A stretch of 64,000 nt of DNA, from NCBI GenBank assembly GCA_030324005.1, contig JARDVH010000163.1, forward strand, positions 53,941,959-54,005,958, written 5' to 3'. This stretch comes from Negaprion brevirostris. Taxonomy: Eukaryota. The notes below the pieces were generated by a model. That model was not told the origin of the DNA, searched no databases, and saw only the letters and a program-made list of their open reading frames with translations. Positions 9,626 to 55,966 of this stretch are shown piece after piece (position 1 is the stretch's first letter; every line of letters starts with the position of its first letter). A program made the position numbers and the translations under genes.

Positions 9626-10782
9626 CCGAAATTCTCCCAAAAATATTCTAAGTGCCAAATTTGTGTGAAAACTGGAGTAAATCATACTGGTTTAATCAGT
9701 GGGAGTTCAGAGAAGAATCTCCCATACCCTGTGCACTGCAGGGGTCACTATCATGAATATCATTAAAAATCAATGGGCAGGACCTATTCCCACTGGAGAG
9801 GCTGAAATCATGCGCATGTGCAGTAGTCTGAACTGCTGGCCTCATGAGCTGGCCATTCCCATGACCCCTACATTGCCAGCCCTCTGGCCCAATCCCTGGC
9901 CCCCCAACCATTCCCAAGCTCAGCCCTGAACCTGTCCCTCCCAGCCTACCCCAATCTCCAACTACCCCCCCAATTCCCCCCGCTGCAGTCCTGACCCCTC
10001 TCCCCCATTGTCCCAACACCACAGCAGGCTGACCCTCCCCTCCACCCCACCCAGCCTGCCCCAATCGCTGGCCTCCGTTCTTCCCCCACCGATGCTGTCC
10101 GCAGAATGGCAACAAGAACAGTACCCCACCGATTGTCCTACCGTGCCCCGCCCCACTAGGACCTACCCCCATAGGCCCCACCCCCGTTGGCCCTGCTCCC
10201 TNNNNNNNNNNNNNNNNNNNNNNNNNNNNNNNNNNNNNNNNNNNNNNNNNNNNNNNNNNNNNNNNNNNNNNNNNNNNNNNNNNNNNNNNNNNNNNNNNNN
10301 NCCCCTAGGACCTACCCCCATAGGCCCCACCCCCTTTGGCACTGCTCCATTAGCAGTTAGCCCCTTGGGCAGTACCAGGGGGCACAGATTGGCATTGTCA
10401 AGGTGCCAATGCCCCTCGGGTGGGCTCCGATTGCCCCCCTACGCTGCAGCAGGATCGGGTGCTAGTTCCCCATTAATGGGGTGTTGGTGTAATCCCAGCT
10501 GGAGTGAACCGCCCTGGTGATGGGAGAGAGAAGCTAGTGGGCCCGGAGATTTCAGTTCCAGGCTCGCTAATAATATTTAAAATATATGGAAATATCAATT
10601 TAAATGATCTTGGCGCCTCCCTGCCGATTCCTGACATGGTGTTGATGGCACTGGAAATCAGGTGCTGGGAGACACTATCGGGGTGGAATGCATGCATGAA
10701 TCCCATGCATCAGCCGCTAGCCAGATTCTCCCGGCCAGGTGCATTAAAATCTTAGCGCAGCAGGATGGGAGAATCCCCTGCC
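9626..10782 (+). mobile_element. Non-autonomous DNA transposon (~1.15 kb, Harbinger-like TIRs)
   Basis: Termini aaattctccca...tgggagaatccc; C-rich repetitive interior containing a gap; same family as 1-720; related interior at 60320-60560. Confidence 0.6.
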
Positions 10783-12312: not shown

Positions 12313-12535
12313 AGAAATTGCTGGAAAATCTCAGCAGGTCTGACAGCATCTATGGAGAGAACAGAACCAATGTTTAGAGTCTGGATGACCTTTCATCAGA
12401 GCTCTAACAGAAGGTCATCCAGAGTTAAAACATTGATTCTATTCTGTCTCCACAGAAGCTGTCAGACCTGTTGAAATTTTCCAACATATTCTGTTTTTGT
12501 TTCAGATTCCAGCATCCACAGCATTTTGCTCTTAT
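12313..12535. mobile_element. Palindromic Penelope-like element end (inverted pLTR arms) with degenerate hammerhead motif
   Basis: Inverted arms ...ctcagcaggtctgacagcatctatggaga / tctccacagaagctgtcagacctgttgaa; centre reads ctgatgaaaggtcatccagactctaaac on the minus strand. Confidence 0.65.
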
Positions 12536-27933: not shown

Positions 27934-29960
27934 ATGGCTGCTAGGAGGGTTGCCACAAAGTTTTCTGAGAGAGCACCCACCAAAATCTTGGATGAGGTAG
28001 AAGAGAGGCAGAACACCCTGTACCTGCAGGCTGGCAGGAGAACAGCCAGCAAGGTGGCCAATCTTGCCTGGGAGGAGCAGCAGCGCTGGGAAGATCAAGC
28101 TCCCTACACAAGAGGATGGGCATCCAGCTTAGGAAAAAGTAATANNNNNNNNNNNNNNNNNNNNNNNNNNNNNNNNNNNNNNNNNNNNNNNNNNNNNNNN
28201 NNNNNNNNNNNNNNNNNNNNNNNNNNNNNNNNNNNNNNNNNNNNAATATGGCCTCCTTTGTGCAGCTAGGGTAAGTCACTCTTCTTATTTACGAACACTC
28301 ACCCACTACACACCAATCACACACCCACTGGGAGCTCACCCACTGCCACCTCACAGGGCCCTACAACTCACCCTTCCACATGCTACCTCAACTCTCCCAA
28401 TGCTCCTCTCCTCATCACATCACAGCTCTCTCTCGCCAATCATACATGCCAGGCATCCTAATCACCAGACCTGGCATGCGTCTTGTTTGCACTCTCCCCA
28501 TCTGTCTCCTTGCAGGATAGGTTGGCTCAAAATGAAAAGGAGAGAAAGCACAGACCAGTGGAGGCACACCTGAACTGAAAATCTTCTCACCATTTGAGGA
28601 GAGAGTCCTGCCAGGCAGGAACAGCAGCGCTGAGGCCATGATGGGTGCCAGAGAAAAAAGTGTGAGCCCACAACACAATCATCCATTTGGCCAACTTCAC
28701 ATGAATTCTTCTCTCCTATTCTATGCTTCGACCATGTATTAATGCCATCTCCCCTCCCCTGCAGGAAAATTAGTGGAGCAGCCCGATCCATTCACAGATG
28801 CAACTTTGGAAGCCAACCAGGAAAACAACTTAAACTCTCAGATTTCTCATTGAAGAGGCATCAGTGATGTCACCCATATCCTCCACTAGTAGAGATTCAT
28901 ACTTCAGTTGAATTAGTAACAGACAGGTCTCTTGGTCACTAACTGGTGAGCACCTCACTTCTGATAATCCATGGCAGGTGGAGGCTGGTATGTCCCAGGG
29001 ATCCTGCACTTGGAGGACTCCTGAAGATCAGGACATTGCCGAACCCCACATAGATGATGTGACTCTGAACTTGTCACTCAGCTGCTGGAGCTACAAAAAC
29101 AAAATCAGGAACATCAGGAAGGGATGTCGGCCTCATTCCTCAGCCGGAGGAGTCCTATCACCTTCTGTCTGAGGAGATTGTGCCAACACTCCAAGGCAAC
29201 CAGGTCAGTACTGCGAGAGTGGCTGCCACAGTGCAGACCTTGGCTCAGGACCTTCACTCCATAGTAGGAGATGTTCACTGCATGGTTCAGACCATGAGCT
29301 CCATGGTGCAGGCACTCGTGGATATCCATGTGCTAGTGCCAGAGGATGGCAGGGCTTCTGGATCTTAACTATGCTGTCTTATTTTCTCAAGGAAGAACAC
29401 AGGATCCCTAAGATCCCATGGGGAAGAGATTCAGCTGGCACATAGCCTGGGGTCTTTCACCCAGGGAACCCTGGGGTGTCCAGCTCATCTGACTCCCCTC
29501 TTCCTGTGATCAACACAGCTCTAATTGAGGCCCTCCAAATCCCAGCTCTCCAGAGAACAGCCGCCAAGTTAATCTTAGTCAACAGGGCATGCACACGGTG
29601 GGTCATGCGTGGGCTGCTCTTGGAGGTTCCGGGAGTGGCCTAGTACTTCGTGTCGGTGTGTNNNNNNNNNNNNNNNNNNNNNNNNNNNNNNNNNNNNNNN
29701 NNNNNNNNNNNNNNNNNNNNNNNNNNNNNNNNNNNNNNNNNNNNNNNNNNNNNNNNNNNNNTGGCTAAGGAAGGGGTTCCATTCGTAGACACGCAGGGTA
29801 GAATAGGTGTAGGGTGATGGCGGCGCGGGCTCGTTGGGGCCGAAGGGCCTGTTTCCCGTGCTGGGTTGTTCTTTGTTCTTTGTTCAGACAGCAGGCAGCC
29901 TCCACCTCAGCTACTGATCATGTGGAGACACCAAGACATAGCGACGGGGTTAGAAAGATA
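27934..29960 (+). pseudogene. Harbinger Myb/SANT-like gene relic (exons ~27934-28270, 28516-28661, 28765 onward)
   Basis: MAARRVATKFSERAPTKILDEVEERQNTLYLQAGRRTASKVANLAWEE; donor gtaagt at 28271; acceptor ccttgcag; exon 2 includes a TSGGTPELKIFSPFEERVL-like segment; frameshifts and stops present. Confidence 0.7.
29591..29885 (+). mobile_element. Young CR1-derived retroelement (ends only, interior in gap) inserted into the Harbinger element
   Basis: The last ~120 nt are nearly identical to 51438-51560 and end in (gttcttt)n; CpG-rich 5' segment. Confidence 0.7.
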
Positions 29961-36215: not shown

Positions 36216-37463
36216 TCATTTGATGGGGGAATTTGTTATCTCCAGGTAATCCTGTCTGCCATTACGGTTGACCCAGTAAAGCTTGTAAGCAGTCAGTGCA
36301 AAGACACTGAAGATGATTATTGATCCACCAATTAGGTCATACATGGTTGGAAACATACGGAGGACTAGCAACTGAAGGATCATGGCAACTACGATCTCTA
36401 AGTGTTGCACTGTGCTAACTAATGCTGGGTGGAATCGATTTAATGCATAATATACACCTAAGAAAGCCACAGTAGAACAGATGCAGATCCCTAATAAATA
36501 TCCCCAGGTTTCTCCATCCAATGGTATAATAGGCTCTTGTAGGATAAACATTGTGGATGCACCCCAGACTGTACCTGTCCATCCAAAGGTGAAAAGAGCA
36601 GTCCACATGCTAACTTTTTCTTTGATTGCTCTGTAAATGATCATGGCGAGAGCTGTAGTTAGCCCAGCCATTACTGTCATGGTATAGCCAAAAGCTTCCT
36701 TCCAAAGGCCCACCAAGGAATTATCTTCATCAACAATATTTGGGATCATTACCAGGCAAAGACCAAAGACACTGCACACCACTGTGACAACATCAGTATA
36801 GTCCAAACGTTCATCTACTAGTAGAAAAGCTAGAATGGCACTGAAGACTGTGGTGGTGGCTCTCCACATAATGGTCCCATTGCTCGGGGGCACAATTGCG
36901 AAGGAGGTGTAGGCGCAGGTGATGGAGATAACATTACACACCCCATACAGAAACAGACCCATTCTGTATCCTTTGGGTCCAAGAGGATGCTCATTACCAT
37001 AGCAGACAATCAAAACAGCAAAGATTTGCAGGACAGAACGAATGAAGAGGAGTTCCAGGGATGGCACTTTGGACCGATCAGCAGCAAGTCGCGTTACTAA
37101 TGCAACACAACCATGGGCCAAGGCAGCCCCAAACAGGGCCACCCAGGTTATTCTTGGCTCAGAGACCACACTTTGTCCAGTACTTTCTGTCTGTTGCCCC
37201 ATTCCTTTATCTTTCTGTTCTTCTGATAAACTCTGACGAACATCAATTGTCCCAAAATATGTTCTTCCTTTACTTTTAGTGTCACCCAAGAGTTTTTTCT
37301 TTGGGTTGTCTTCAACATAATTTTCACTGTCTAGGTATGTCTCTTCATTACCCTCTTCTTCAGGCTGTGGGTAATGTGCCGTGTATTTCACAGTCACTGT
37401 GTTTGGGTGGATTTTCACTCTTTTCTTTGAGGGATTTGTTGTCTTCATAGGTGAAGATGCCAT
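36216..37463 (-). CDS. SLC35G2: Solute carrier family 35 member G2 (TMEM22), EamA/DMT-type multi-pass transporter, 415 aa, single coding exon
   Basis: [69 protein letters not shown] and C-terminal SPIK match recalled vertebrate SLC35G2. ATG at 37463 in context AAAATGG; splice acceptor ttttctgtgaaatttgctgcag just upstream (exon starts 37486). Confidence 0.96.
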
Positions 37464-38218
37464 TTTTCTGCAGCAGAATCTCTTCCCTGCAGCAAATTTC
37501 ACAGAAAAGTTAAACCATCATATTGTTTGTCATTACTGTACGTGTGGAACAGCATTTGTAGCTTATATTTATGGGCAACTATGTGCCACATCAACTGCTG
37601 CATATACGAGGAAGTCCAACTAATTTAAGTGCTAACCCTTCCATGTATGTATTAAAACAACATTTCCTTCAACCACAAGAGTACAGAATGTTAAAAAATA
37701 ATACTTTGGAGTACCCAATGATAGTAAATTTAGTTAATCCTTGGGTAGCTAATTCTACATCAATTTATTACTCTCTCAGAATAGAAAAGAGGCAAAGGTA
37801 TGAGATGGTAAACTGCTGAGTTGATGTAGAATATATACAAACCACAATAAATACCTGAATGTTAAAACTGACACAATTTCAACACTTTATTTTTATAACA
37901 GAAATATTCAAGAATTTAATGTCAGTCAGATATTAATGTTAGCAATTTGTAGAAAATTCAGCTACTTGCAAACAGAGCACATTTCAATTATCCTCCTTCT
38001 GGATGCTGCATGTAGCTACTCCTACTAGGAGATCTGCTGTCATGGTATGCCATGCTCACACATCCACTATAGCTCATCTACAACCATGATGTGACATTCA
38101 TCATCTAACGACATCTAAGTTGTCTAGATCCATCTGCTGCCTGCCATTTTGCCCTCCAGATGAACTCTCTGTCTCCTATCAGTGCTAGAATAATTTGTTA
38201 TTACATTTTAATAGAAAG

Positions 38219-38560
38219 GAGGCAAAGGTCTAGTGGTATTATCGCTAGACCATTAATCTAGAAACTCAGCTAATGTTCCGAGGACACAGATTTGATTCCC
38301 ACCAAGGCAGATGGTGGCATTTCAATTCAATTAAAAATATCTGGAATTAAGAATCTACTGATGACCATGGAACTATTGCTGATTTCCGGAAACACCCATT
38401 TGGTTCACAAATGTCCTTTAGGGAAGGAAATCTGTCTCTTTTTGCGATCTGGCCTACATGTGACTCCAGAGCCACAGCAAAATGGTTGACTCTCAACTGT
38501 CCTCCAAGGACAACTAGGGATGGGCAATAAATGTTAACCAGCCCATGTTCCATAAATTAA
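38219..38560 (+). mobile_element. tRNA-derived SINE (same family as 7850-8203)
   Basis: ggaggcaaaggtctagtggtattatcgctagac...ctagggatgggcaataaatg. Confidence 0.75.
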
Positions 38561-40574
38561 AATTTTCTCTTCTATATTGCCTCTTTCATATTACAGGCAA
38601 ACATTGTGATCACTCTGAATTGCAGTAACTGGGGAGTTTTATTTTATTACTGCAATGGTTTTCAAAATGGCAGCAGCGAGAGAAAATACAAACACTGCCA
38701 ACTTTAGTTCATGTATTATTGAACCAGGGATCCAGAAATGTTTGATAAGTATTCCCTCTGCTGGACCAGACTTCTGGAGAAGACGGCTGACTGGTGTGGC
38801 TTGGTATCTTTACATGGGAGCTACATCTGAACCACTAAAAGGGTTGAAGAAACCTTAGTAACATTATTTGCTTTTTTTGTTTGAACTTAGTGTTTCTGAA
38901 AACAGTGAACCAGTTGGTGATGCTGGTAGGAAGCGGATGATAGAATCATCAAACATGAACTTTGTTATGAACAAACATGTTTTCTTCAGAGATTTTTTGG
39001 TCATTGGCAGAGCAAGGGCACTCTCCCCTGACCTTGAAGAAAGGTTTCCCGAAAGATCTAACAATCTCTGTGGCAGGAACTTCCCATTTTCCCGATAGCA
39101 GTTTACATCTGATGCCAAGTGTCGTGGATATCTTGGCGTACAGCAGTTTGCAGGATTTCTCGTTATTCTACGAATGGATGGACACAGAAGTTGCTGTCGG
39201 CTTCAGTGGTTGCAAATACTGTTAATTTATCTCTCATCACCATTGCAAGATTCGTGCCAGAGCCTAGAGTTTGTGTGACTAAAAAATTATAATAGACATT
39301 TCAAATGAAATAGAAAATTCAAGACAATATATTGCAAATATTGTCCACTTCAATTCCAATCTGCCTGGCATACTGGCTGAGGAAAGGATTCGGTTGGACC
39401 TGCAGCTTTTGATATGCAGAGGATCACAGGGATTGTGCTAATATTTTTATGGGGTGGCCAGGAGTATATCAATATGGGCAGGGATCCTTAATCAGAATAA
39501 TATGAAAACTTCTGGTCTCATTGAATACTGCAAATAAGTAATTACGTTTTTAACCCTAAGCTTCCCTTCTTTTGCTTATTCATTTTTACCTTGACCCTTT
39601 GATCCACAAATAATGCTGCCCCTTCAGTCCTCTTGTCCACTCCGATATACTTTTCATTTGCTTTTGGAATAGTAAGTTTGGCAGTGCAATACTAAGTTTG
39701 AAAGAGTTCATTTTTTATCTTTTTTTATATTAACAATGATTAGCTATTCATCAAGATTTCTTAAAATATAAGTGACAGCTAGAACTCGTGGTCATTCGTT
39801 TGATCAGTTGAAAAAAATGTTTAAGGGATCATTTTCTTTGTTTACACTCCTGCATTTGAATGAGGAACAAAAATGTCTGGACACAATTTCCATTAACCCC
39901 AGTCCTGCAAAAGAAACCATACACGTTGAAAGCCTGGGGTGATTATACACCATGCCAGCCCCTTGCTCTAATTCCAAAACAGAAATCCATGATTCAGAGA
40001 TTGAACAAAAACTTTAAAACATGAATTGTTTCTGATGGAACTTTAGGTAGCTAATCCGAATGGTAGTAATAAACTAATCCAAGCAATAAATGAATAGCTG
40101 GTTTCAGTGTTCACTACAGATTTTATGCTGCGTCTCAATTTTCATAAGGGAGGCCTTCACGCCAAAAAAATTAAAGCCAAATGTTTCCTAAAACATGGGG
40201 TAAATACTTGTTAAAATTACATTTAATTACAAACAGGAACAGTGTCAAAGTGCACTTTTTAGTTTTAGTGCTGTCAAAGCAAATGTTTATTCATCTATGC
40301 ATTGTAACTGTTAATCAGGGAAAAGAAATTGGCTAGAGATCCCTAAAATGTGACTTAACTGTTTCACTATATCAGACTTGCAGGTTGCGCTATTAAAGTT
40401 AGATTGAAATTTAATTATCTCCATCATTTTCCTTAACTGTGCTATCAGAAACAATGATGCCTAATGAAAACAAGGACTAATTCCATTCAGTTCCATATAT
40501 ATGACAGGAACTTTTTACAAAAGCACTGCAATGTTGACTTGCAGAGTTCTATTCCATGTTCCCCTCCAAGTCAC

Positions 40575-40770
40575 TCACTATCCTGCAACCTGCATTGTCC
40601 CTGGATCAAAGTCCTGGAACACCTTCCCTGACAGCACGGTGAGTGTACATACACCACATGGACTGCAGCGGTTCCGGAAGACAGCTCACTGCCACCTTCT
40701 GAAGGACAATTAGGGATGGGTAATAAATGCTACTTGAGCCAGCGATGCCCACATCCCATGAATGAGTAAA
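40575..40770 (+). mobile_element. LINE 3' end (CR1/L2 group) sharing its tail with the 7850/38219 SINE family
   Basis: GSKSWNTFPDS...HGLQRFRKTAHCHLLKDN followed by tagggatgggtaataaatgc...ccagcgatgcccacatcccatgaatg. Confidence 0.7.
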
Positions 40771-41741
40771 GCAAATGGGCGATTTACTTCAAATTCATTT
40801 GATATTAACCGTGATGAGTTGTGTGTTACAATTTATTTTATTAAATCAAATGAGAAATGTATTCATAAACGCTGAAGTAATGACCACTGACTGGATTTGT
40901 ATTGAGGCAACAATAAAGTTGGGGAGGAATGCTGGCAAGGATGATGGAACTGAATTTAATCCACTTTGATTGGAGGATCTGTTGCTACCTTAACATGCAT
41001 TCCACAATTAGCACTTGGAAATCCTTTTAGCATCTCTGTTAGGACTGCCAAACTGTACCTGAATGGTGCCTTAATCAGGAAACAGTGACACGGATAAATA
41101 ATAAGCATAGACTCTGTTTAAAATATTAAAAGACACTCCAAACGGGAATGAAAATTCACTGTCTATTCTTTCTCAGATGGCCTCATTACAAACAGGAGCT
41201 GCTTGTTGCAGGGACAAATGTAACCCACGCAATGTGCAACAGAATAATCCCTGTGGAGTAATTTACACCAGAGTTTGAGTGGTGGTGGGTCTCTTGGGAT
41301 ACGTCTATTATGACATTTCATGGCTCAATTACTCGATGCATCATTACATTCTGGTCTCCCAGGTCAACTGAACGCTGAAGCATCTATTGGCTCATTTAAT
41401 GGTAAATTCTTTTTCAGGTTAAAATCTGTACGAATTATTTTCTTGATCCAGCTTCCAGAGTACAGGTTAAAAAATAAGGAAAGTCAACTGCCCGTCTGAT
41501 CAAGTGAACTTGATAAATTTTATAGGAATAAATGAGTACTGCGCACTGATGATGCATGTTCGATTCAACATTGTTGACGATGGAGATTGAGGTCAAGGTG
41601 GAAATGTTACTTTGCAAAGAAATGGCCCAGCTAGTTATCAGAAATGTTTGATTCCTCGTTCCTGACGCTAGGGCAATTGCTAGCAAACTGATGTGCACTT
41701 CTAATGTTTCCAATTAAAGCAACACGTTTAAATACGTAAAG

Positions 41742-42165
41742 AAAATGCTGGAAAGACTCAACAGGTCAGGCAGCATCTGCGAAGAAAGGTTAACAGGTAA
41801 TGTTGATCTAATGACCTGCTTTCTTTCCTCTCTCTCTCCACAGATGTTGTAAGGAGTCTCACAATACCAGGTTAAGGTCCAACAGGTTTATTTAGTAACA
41901 AACGGTTGTAAACGGCGACGAGTGAATGACCAGTGAATGTTAACAGGAGCGTTCAAGGGCGCCTTCCAGCACATTTAGTGGCTTTTGCTACCAAATAAAC
42001 CTGTTGGACTATAGCCTGGTGTTGTGAGACTTCTTATAGTGTTTACCCCAGTCCAACGCCGGCATCTCCACATCATGTCCACAGATGTTGCCAGACCTTT
42101 GATGTGTCTTCCCGGCATTTGCTATTTTCATTCCAAGTTTCTAGTATCCCTAGTATTCCGCTTGT
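41742..42165. mobile_element. Palindromic Penelope-like element (12313 family) interrupted by a second element
   Basis: Left arm aaaatgctggaaagactcaacaggtcaggcagcatctg; right arm tccacagatgttgccagacc...tttctagtatcc, split at the TSD. Confidence 0.65.
41850..42077. mobile_element. Palindromic Penelope-like insertion with 13-bp TSD and captured 74-bp local sequence
   Basis: TSD tccacagatgttg at 41837-41849 and 42078-42090; arms aaggagtctcacaataccaggttaaggtccaacaggtttattt / aaataaacctgttggactatagcctggtgttgtgagacttctt; same family as 55771-55966. Confidence 0.8.
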
Positions 42166-42179
42166 GTTTTATTGCCTCC

Positions 42180-43810
42180 TGGTCAACGCGGTGAAATTTT
42201 GGGGCAGGCATACATCAGATTTACACCAAACTGTATCTGGTCAGTCTCTCTCGTGTTCACACAATGGTATCAGAAGCCCCAAAACAAGTGTGTGTGTGCT
42301 GTAGGACTGGGCTGTACCACGAAGCGGCAGCAGAACAGTTAACTGACCAGCACATCAATGAATGCGGGCACGGAAGATGATACAAAGCGGGAAACGGAAT
42401 GGACTTCATACTGGGATTAAAAGCAATTAGTCGGAAAATGATCGAAAATAAGATCACTTCGGCAAGGTATTCAGACTCCAAACGCGAGGCACCACTGATG
42501 ACTTTAATCTTGGGTTGCACAACATTATATTTGTTCGCCTTTTCCAGCAATCATTGGAAATTTCCATCTTGATTGCTTGCTTGTTACTGGGATCCTTTAA
42601 AAAAATTCCACACGTGAGGGGCTGGCAGCTACCACGAAATTCTACGAATAAAGCGACTGCAACGTGTACATCATCAGAAAGCAACTTTATGAGCGGTTGA
42701 AGAACCATGTGCAAAACTGCCGATAATTAATGCCAATTTTTTTTTCTGTGAACGGAATGATATGTGAGACATGAAATTCAATCTTTAGAGCTGGAATAAT
42801 ATTACTTCTAAATACCTAGCTGGCGAGGGAAGCAGTTAGATTGGGGTTTTCCTGTCTTCAGTATGGATCACACTGACAAGTCATCTTCTTCTGTGCTCCC
42901 AACACACACGAGGGTGTAAATGAAGATATTTGTGGCGTTTCCGCGAGCAAGCTGCAGTTAAATGTACTGGAAGGCGCCCTTGAACGCTCCTGTTAACATT
43001 CACTTGTCATTCACTTCTCGCCGTTTACAACCACCCGCCTGGGAGCAGCTGAGCAAACACATTTGGGGTGAAAACGCGAACAGTTCACTGATCCATCAGC
43101 CCCGCATTGATGCGATGCTCCAGTCGTTAGCTTTACCTCCCGAGGTCCTGAGCTACCAAAGAGCATCACTAATTAAACCGGACATGTAGTGAAATAGTAA
43201 CAGTGAATGACAGTCTGGTTGGAGAAAGTAAGACTGAAGGGTTAAAATCGGCAAGCTTAAGGACACAGCGAATGCTAAAGCGGATAGATACAAACGCGGC
43301 GAGGTGCCTCCCAGCCTAAGCCCCTATGCATGGCAGATGAAGCTAACCCCAGCTCACTGGACTCTCCATCCATCACAGTGGACAGTAACAAGACTTTACC
43401 TTCCCTTCTGTCGGACTGAGCACTTTGCAATGGTGCTGGAAGCAGTTGGGTTAAACGGTCCAAGGAGCGCGGCGGCGTCTTCCAGGAGACGGCTGCCAGG
43501 CTCCTGCCATCCCTCCCTGGTGCTGGCACCGAGCAGATATAGAGATGTTCCCGGGACCGGGNNNNNNNNNNNNNNNNNNNNNNNNNNGGGGGGTGGCAGG
43601 GAGGGGGATGGAAGGGAGATGAAACGCGTCGATTTGCTTTGCAGGTTACCTGAGCAGATGGCACCAGGGGGAGATGCTGCACGGCAGAGATGGCCGTGTT
43701 TCCAAGCTCTAACCTCTCCTCTCTCTCCTTCACCTAGACTGAGCTGGAGCCAAACAACTGCAAGAGAAAATGAAGAGGGGGGCAAAGCGAGAGTGCATGC
43801 GCACAGGAGG
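42180..43810 (-). promoter_or_regulatory. CpG-enriched region, probable SLC35G2 promoter and non-coding first exon
   Basis: CpGs retained in non-repeat sequence; GC-rich core at 43440-43620; minus-strand donors AAG|GTAAAG (exon end 43400) and CAG|GTAACC (exon end 43650); ~6 kb upstream of the coding-exon acceptor. Confidence 0.55.
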
Positions 43811-50844: not shown

Positions 50845-51560
50845 AACAGTGAATATAGGGAGGAATATAAGCTGTGCCAGGTGCCACATGTGGGAGTTCT
50901 TGGTGGCGTCACGTGTCCCGAAGGTGCACATCTGCATGAAATGTTTAGAACTGCAGCGCTTGAGGGCCCGGGTCAGGCAACTTGAGGGGCGTCTGGAGGA
51001 TGCGTTTCTAGTTAGGGAGAACGAGGAGTTAATGGTTAGGAACCACGATCAGGAAGAGATCCCAAGGGCTGAAGATCAGGAAGGGTGGATGACTGTGAGG
51101 AGGAGAAAGAGGAAGAAGAAGAGTAGTCAGGGTCCCCCGGCCTCCTCAGAGCCCCCCCAAGGTTCGTCGACAGGGGCACAAAAGGATAGGCAGAAGGGGG
51201 AGACTGACCTAGAGGGACAGAAGGGGGATGGCAAGGTTATAGTGGTAGGGGATGGGAGGGTCCGGGGTATTGATAGAAGGTTCTGTGGACAGAGGCGTGA
51301 CTCCAGGATGGTGGTCTGCCTCCCNNNNNNNNNNNNNNNNNNNNNNNNNNNNNNNNNNNNNNNNNNNNNNNNNNNNNNNNNNNNNNNNNNNNNNNNNNNN
51401 NNNNNNNNNNNNNNNNNNNNNNNNATCTCCCCTGAATTTGGCTAAGGAAGGGGTTCCATTAGTAGACACGCAGGGTAGAATAGGTGTAGGGTGATGGCGG
51501 CCCGGGCTCGTTGGGCCGAAGGGCCTGTTTCCCGTGCTGGGTTGTTCTTTGTTCTTTGTT
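50845..51560 (+). mobile_element. CR1-type ORF1 (zinc finger, coiled coil, SGNH esterase-like) followed across a gap by a CR1 3' tail
   Basis: CARCHMWE...HICMKC, LQRLRARVRQLEGRLE, VIVVGDGRVRGIDRRFCGQRRDSRMVVCL; tail gggccgaagggcctgtttcc...(gttcttt)n. Confidence 0.85.
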
Positions 51561-55770: not shown

Positions 55771-55966
55771 CATGATGTGGAGATGCTGACAGTGGACAGC
55801 GGTGGGCACAATAAAAACTCTCTCAACACCACGTTTATTTGGAATCACAAGCTTTCAGAGTGCTGCTCCTTCATCAGGTGAGTTTCTCAAGGAGCAGTGC
55901 TCCAAAAGCTTGTGATTCCAAATAAATCTGTTGGACTTTAACCTGGTGCTGAGAGACTTCTTACTA
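55771..55966. mobile_element. Palindromic Penelope-like element end
   Basis: Inverted arms tttatttggaatcacaagcttt...gctcctt / aaggagc...aaagcttgtgattccaaataaa; starts catgatgtggagatgc, the reverse complement of 42062-42077. Confidence 0.75.
55845..55881 (-). ncRNA. Minimal hammerhead ribozyme motif (PLE type)
   Basis: Minus strand reads UCAC-CUGAUGA-AGGAGCAGCACUCU-GAAA-GCUU-GUGA: conserved core, stem I UCAC/GUGA, palindromic AAGCUU stem III. Confidence 0.6.

Follow-up and report, generated by a model that had tools for sequence, protein, structure and literature searches.

Junction filler matching nearby DNA in a stub insertion of a shark Penelope-like element, and local donors in related copies

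Introduction

The layout of Penelope-like element (PLE) insertions is known, and two accounts of inverted-pLTR insertions mention unrelated sequence captured between solo pLTRs; the passages concerned give no source, distance or polarity for it (PMC3846280, PMC8557442). The inversion is ascribed there to self-priming on an antisense template, whereas the arm lengths reported below favour two cDNAs. Published PLE papers, in the parts drawn on here, treat the building of head-to-head ends as an open question. The purified protein of a lizard PLE, Anolis Poseidon, cuts and extends both strands in vitro from two start sites that bound the tail, and hammerhead cleavage is not needed; joining and filler are not addressed in the sections of that study used here (PMC11167929).

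Among better-described systems, twin priming of L1 likewise involves two cDNAs, one cut and end joining, and the cases described include co-insertions from nearby pre-mRNA (one case) and from genomic DNA near the site (three) (PMC10191854, PMC11702581, PMC13174262). Those events are somatic or from cell lines, amount to a handful and belong to another element class, whereas the shark PLE events described here are germline-fixed with donors in a defined band; L1 cDNAs also come from different parts of the RNA, whereas the PLE arms copy the same pLTR segment. Short inserts at nuclease-made breaks likewise derive from resected ends or transcribed loci with short microhomology, and their donor distance is described as shifting when MRE11 or BLM is inhibited (10.1101/2022.09.30.509517). 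In that account the breaks carry no cDNA arms and donors fall into classes of 0-250 and 250-750 bp, whereas here none lies below 290 nt.

Layout and occasional capture are thus known for PLEs and L1. A recurrent, distance-limited local source is apparently new: no prior account of such donors in PLE joints was found in the literature searched (subscription papers and preprint supplements lay outside its scope), and the portion of 10.64898/2026.07.22.740005 consulted holds nothing on local donors in PLE centres.

Results

A stub insertion with a 74-nt junction filler

The window analysed is a 64,000-nt stretch of the Negaprion brevirostris genome. The features discussed are as follows.

36216..37486, minus strand: coding exon, EamA family (profile match and RNA-like runs)
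41725..42140, no strand: older palindromic repeat, putatively Penelope-type, hosting the insertion (ends approximate)
41837..41849, no strand: left TSD copy, 13 bp (exact repeat; one target copy at the empty site of organism F)
41850..41903, minus strand: tail-less inverted pLTR arm, cut short just inside the arm core (outer boundary common to most palindromes)
41904..41977, minus strand: 74-nt junction filler, inverted copy of 42959-43032 (alignment and genome search)
41978..42036, plus strand: sense pLTR arm (93-96% to other copies)
42037..42077, plus strand: one-sided PLE 'tail', 41 nt (comparison with other palindromes)
42078..42090, no strand: right TSD copy (exact repeat; empty site in organism F)
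42959..43032, plus strand: donor in unique DNA of intron 1 (881-955 nt away, transcript-upstream of the insertion; present in organisms E and F)
43651..43797, minus strand: exon 1, non-coding, in a CpG-rich stretch (5' end is the contig limit)
55771..55964, no strand: second palindrome of this family (left-sided tail; centre without visible foreign filler)

The 228 bp at 41850-42077, flanked by a perfect 13-bp TSD (41837-41849 and 42078-42090), are a stub insertion of a PLE with pLTR arms head-to-head. Its inverted arms (41850-41902 and 41984-42036; 53 nt, 87% identical) match the element at 55771, whose left arm carries a hammerhead-like core on the minus strand, and bases inside the arm assign the two to different subfamilies. 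An earlier note, made from the sequence of this window, had described the TSD and the arms as at 55771, and both were seen again in our alignments.

Positions 41904-41977 are the reverse complement of 42959-43032. The match has sharp ends, similarity stopping at both borders, and our count agrees with the earlier one at 70 of 74 identical positions. At the joints one base (left) and two bases (right) are shared and could be assigned to arm or donor alike. A search of the 2.69-Gb genome with the 74-mer, as the earlier note had proposed for 42959-43032, returned two matches only, filler and donor (the search skips very common words); the sequence is therefore not a dispersed repeat. It is not a standard part of the family either, centres differing among copies. 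The description of a 'replaced' centre had to be given up, because these palindromes have no fixed centre: what lies in the middle is the joint of two independently truncated arms. The 74 nt are better called a junction filler.

The host gene, a putative SLC35G2 in the earlier note, lies on the minus strand; its coding exon covers 36216-37486 and intron 1 spans 37487-43650. RNA-like runs X20 and X22, from two studies (their RNA status is an automatic guess), join an exon ending at about 43650 to the coding exon. Donor and insertion thus both lie in the first intron, where the donor had already been placed from the sequence, and the donor, about 620 nt below exon 1, is transcribed ahead of the insertion site. 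The proposal that the insertion is nested in another palindrome also held: the two sides of the host repeat align as an inverted repeat and align to the palindrome at 12313-12492. The latter represents a second palindromic family, related to the host repeat, with inverted arms and a different centre.

As the earlier note foresaw, filler and donor place a 74-bp inverted repeat in the pre-mRNA, a potential dsRNA whose stem is predicted in silico. No function is indicated for the predicted stem and none is claimed, since substitutions have gathered freely on filler and donor and three of the four mismatches are later changes.

Elsewhere in the window, repeats lie beside N gaps (1482-1871 with 1974-2363; 29762-29884 with 51439-51560; 10153-10199 with 10302-10348), some of them probably assembly duplications. 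Several palindromes outside it are doubled across 100-N gaps.

Age of the filler

Comparison of orthologous loci, suggested earlier, revealed an empty site with a single target copy in organism F, while contigs of the related sharks B, C and D pass from both flanks into the element; the contig of organism E begins to match exactly at the right TSD. In organisms B and C a variant lies inside the filler, and the contigs break at 42975-43004, a stretch common to filler and donor. The filler is present in organisms A, B and C, and no filler-free orthologue was seen among the loci compared. Outgroups polarise three of the four mismatches, one to the filler (41919, from B and C) and two to the donor (43016, from B-F; 42966, from B and D). 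These three are ordinary later substitutions, so that the filler was a near-exact or exact copy when made.

An element family whose centres are joints

Two exact 17-mers set 60-120 nt apart retrieved at least 1296 palindromes, and centres of 100-260 nt were seen in 556/576 strand matches. The centres all differ from copy to copy; most palindromes keep the outer boundary of the 41850 arm. The tail was one-sided in 137 of 157 palindromes, on both sides in 2 and undetected in 18. Repeats at the flanks (longest exact match, 155 copies) measured 4-15 nt and reached 10 nt or more in 60, the short values including chance matches. With a direct pLTR beside an adjacent inverted 5'-truncated copy, a one-sided tail of 41 nt in the 41850 copy where 30-40 bp is described for PLEs, a variable TSD and a hammerhead motif, the family shows traits of endonuclease-bearing PLEs. 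Longer copies run upstream into the hammerhead-like motif and then into a frame matching shark RVT_1 proteins; at L009 this frame, upstream of the pLTR, matched 14 shark proteins, of which four carry RVT_1 (PF00078) and the majority PF26215. Pfam searches with three ORF fragments themselves gave no match. GIY-YIG-like residues were noticed by eye in the frame upstream of the pLTR.

For the hammerhead we searched with a regular expression for what we assume to be the minimal motif. It occurs at 55877 on the minus strand and in most copies, and is missing (cut off) in the 41850 copy; Rfam gave no match to the hammerhead-like core at its gathering score. The architecture searched for is that described in PMC4209133. 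The right arm of the 41850 copy starts at the predicted hammerhead cut, and we considered whether cleavage causes the junction. This was rejected: 125 of 130 arms in the unselected sets run past the cut, and a pattern search for arms that end there yielded nine sites. The start of the right arm at the cut is put down to coincidence. Among unselected palindromes (L033-L047, L200-L259), 62 of 130 arms stop a little beyond where the motif has its 5' end; this hot spot of truncation does not coincide with the predicted cut.

Inward reach was compared in 138 palindromes: the tail-less arm was the longer in 41, the tailed arm in 32, and the two were about equal in 65. A fold-back copy cannot hold bases absent from its template; since either arm can be the longer, a fold-back origin of the second arm is ruled out and both arms were made from RNA. 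The two arms of one copy belong to the same subfamily in 61 of 71 cases, with 35% expected, which points to one RNA or one source for both. Element ORF sequence from beyond the tail (score of at least 45) occurs in 7 of 216 centres, so the joint accepts extra templates.

Several other centres were noted. Those of L100, L144, L221, L235, L260 and L266 hold a second copy of the element's tail, as if RT had restarted at its normal start. That of L226 (G000:C7:3544015-3544153) carries degenerate telomere-like repeats, possibly from a telomeric template or a telomerase-like addition at the joint. By eye, the filler at L285:2900-3100 resembles the 3' end of another retroelement, with a short terminal repeat beside the tailed arm, which suggests a jump to an RNA 3' end.

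Local donors in other copies

The earlier note had raised the possibility of a general local capture, and a search of palindrome centres against their own flanks added 12 accepted cases to the 41850 copy. Three sets of palindromes were examined, in two of which candidates had been picked by eye for foreign-looking centres. The first held 38 palindromes so chosen (L156 was dropped, no palindrome being detected), each centre being compared with its own flank (+/-5 kb) and with those of 39 other loci, all masked. In 7 of 38 the own flank outscored every other, with about one such case expected (p=4e-5). The second comprised 60 sites from the first 100 listed, 51 unselected and 9 taken partly by look, with 3 skipped as duplicate or all N. 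Nineteen of its centres had at least 15 non-element bases, several of these masked segments being gap duplicates, neighbouring copies or element pieces and not foreign; the own flank was strictly best in three, over 72-92 aligned nt (p=0.004). In the third, 40 sites chosen by eye after a prediction had been written down, the own flank came first in four (p=0.017), two of them convincing (34 nt at 97%; 20 nt exact). Left out of the accepted donors were L145, L148, L090, L224 and L265, which lie in repeats or are matched by controls, and two weak first-ranked matches, L273 (inside an arm) and L275 (12 nt in a repeat).

A local patch is thus detectable in about 5% of long-centre copies, and in fewer overall; a rough extrapolation gives hundreds of patched copies genome-wide. 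Many long fillers gave no local donor, some flanks holding large N gaps. The filler of L147 is element ORF, that of L142 has a single 74% match elsewhere, and a 129-nt filler at L087:4950-5080 matches a multi-copy C2H2 zinc-finger-like gene family at 78-91%, with no clear source and with no neighbour within 15 kb. The L087 filler is a candidate for mRNA captured in trans, and being a gene fragment without a neighbour it suggests that part of the fillers point to RNA templates in trans.

Donors lie in a distance band

The 13 accepted donors measure 13-114 nt and are 78-100% identical to their fillers; four are short (13-26 nt), and about one of these four is expected by chance. From the element to the near end of the donor the distance is 293-1413 nt (median 861), and in all 13 the far end is at most 1527 nt away; two of the intervals include gaps of at least 100 N. 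All 13 fall inside 280-1800 nt, for which a uniform distribution out to 2.8 kb gives p=5e-4. These limits were taken, after the data had been seen, from mouse meiotic resection, for which a mean of 1100 nt is given with 99% of tracts above 280 and 1% above 1800 (PMC7263140). The two bands are alike, with the caveat that the mouse figures come from SPO11 breaks and the donors from shark PLE insertions. Ten long fillers that lacked a near donor gave no full-length match at 3-15 kb; in four of them an 11-15 nt match at that range exceeded the best control by 2-4 bits, none covering the filler. Polymerase theta insertions are marked by microhomology at the joints and iterated short tracts, and their donors are usually far closer than those seen here.

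Donors occur on either side of the site, eight direct and five inverted. Ten of the 13 combine direct orientation with the tail-less side or inverted orientation with the tail side (p=0.09). In 9 of 10 asymmetric cases the donor end far from the site adjoins an arm, with patchwork at the end nearer the site (by eye; p=0.02). This polarity rule was drawn up post hoc. The two cases added once the prediction had been written are divided: L284 fits and counts among the nine, and L263 is the exception. The filler of L216 combines two inverted donors, one from each flank. The second is a 20-mer that has 10-11 nt in common with the end of the arm and was not found in other loci totalling 1.16 Mb. One or both tracts of L216 must have come from the strand with its 5' end toward the break. 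Two tracts of L141 come from one donor and share their near end, as expected if the template ended there. Joints share 0-11 nt, and iterated tracts occur in L141, L090 and L088.

CpG observed/expected is 0.55 at the 41850 locus and 0.15-0.50 at the other donor loci, mostly near the background median of 0.27; a link to CpG islands was rejected on this ground. GC skew at donor loci showed nothing of note.

Genes at donor loci

Pfam searches on 300 of 311 stop-free frames at the first ten other donor loci identified genes at two; at the remaining eight no exon was found within 4-5 kb, a search that misses short exons. At L102, an ankyrin-repeat gene, the donor lies upstream of the site as in the 41850 copy. 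At L256, a granzyme K/A-like gene lies 2 kb beyond; either the donor falls downstream of the site, or neither of them belongs to the gene. Gene direction is thus mixed across the 41850 copy, L102 and L256, and under one polarity rule pre-mRNA cannot have been the template in all three. The granzyme-like exon (L256:6126-6326) has arginine at what we take, from the granzyme motif, to be the usual position of the catalytic histidine; going by its sequence the gene may be an inactive paralogue.

Discussion

We propose, as the somewhat more probable reading on balance, that these stubs arise from two target-primed cDNAs, joined after one end has copied local DNA exposed by processing of the break. 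The element endonuclease would make a staggered cut, and RT would start at two fixed RNA points to give one arm with the tail and one without, both cDNAs stopping early. Most pairs would be joined directly; a few percent would take up filler, whether copied from element RNA, from other repeats or from sequence nearby. The local template would be single-stranded DNA near the resection end, most simply the strand with its 5' end facing the break, from which the element RT or a host polymerase would copy 13-114 nt toward the site. End joining and gap filling would then restore the flanks with the TSD kept: resection of 5' strands would spare the 3' ends that carry the cDNAs, so that the TSD survives. 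Independent priming of both target ends with the TSD retained, the feature of twin priming, is seen here indirectly, in the one-sided tail (137 of 157) and in either arm being the longer. The model must also explain the shared subfamily of the arms (61 of 71). Against it weigh the total of 13 donors and the fact that which arm primed is not readable from the sequence.

The template might instead have been RNA. A jump of the RT off the element RNA and onto nascent pre-mRNA of the host, tethered where the element inserts, fits the 41850 copy well, the donor being transcribed just ahead of the site and the filler reading as pre-mRNA cDNA that extends the tailed arm; L102 shows the same geometry, and the ORF sequence in 7 of 216 centres attests RT jumps onto RNA at the joint. 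There is precedent in one L1 insertion (PMC10191854) and in transcription-coupled insertions at breaks as described in 10.1101/2022.09.30.509517. For the 41850 copy alone, with its clean joints, 1 and 2 shared nt and no patchwork, DNA and pre-mRNA fit equally. Across copies a DNA template is favoured over nascent RNA, because gene directions are mixed, the distance band resembles that of resection and donor distance elsewhere shifts with resection enzymes. Pre-mRNA also fits poorly with the L256 donor, which is downstream of the site or lies outside the granzyme-like gene, with the use of both flanks and opposite strands at L216, and with the absence of donors beyond 1.6 kb in spite of long introns. 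Granzymes are silent in the germline, which further weakens the case at L256, and the eight loci of ten without a detected exon weigh slightly in the same direction. We therefore regard pre-mRNA as an unlikely general template. RNA transcribed outward from both break ends, and copied by RT from its far end, would match the 5'-ended strand in polarity and would accommodate donors on both flanks; by itself it does not explain why none lies within 290 nt, and we consider it rather improbable. Break-induced transcription is discussed in 10.1101/2022.09.30.509517.

The two routes offered in the earlier note were template switching during retrotransposition and repair of a finished hairpin; local capture itself stands, and repair is the weaker route, because the centres vary as joints of truncated arms and there was no intact centre to lose. 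A palindrome that broke later at its centre and was patched by the host with nearby DNA would agree with the fragility of palindromes, with the resemblance of patchwork fillers to polymerase theta products, and with filler and donor being 95% identical where the arms are 87%. Yet all centres vary, often with element RNA sequence that only RT would supply, the differences between arms include variants found in other copies, and the filler is in organisms A, B and C with no filler-free orthologue seen; we give this route little credence. The assembly is gap-rich, with some gaps inside palindromes, and an artefact had to be considered. A chimera was already thought unlikely in the earlier note on account of the four mismatches; with three of these resolved by outgroups, the filler present in the contigs of two other organisms and a genome-wide E of about 1e-24, chimera and chance similarity are refuted at the 41850 locus and have next to no probability.

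If two cDNAs joined at a processed break are indeed the source, the stubs identify the centre as a place where two cDNAs were end-joined, which records whichever single-stranded templates were within reach. Captures of this kind leave, as a by-product, small inverted or direct duplications of intron and promoter-proximal DNA; nothing in the sequence of the 41850 locus itself suggests a function. Since a shark genome holds thousands of copies, the distances and polarities of donors can be counted and so give a read-out of the integration intermediate. More tentatively, and with a good deal of doubt, fillers may mark where resection stopped. The hundreds of patched stubs expected in a shark genome would then be a fossil record, both of how far germline resection ran (median about 0.9 kb, range 0.3-1.5 kb) and of how Penelope integration ends, with two cDNA ends at a resected break priming on the 5'-ended strand. 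They could possibly serve to read out the resection of germline breaks in a lineage that lacks genetics.
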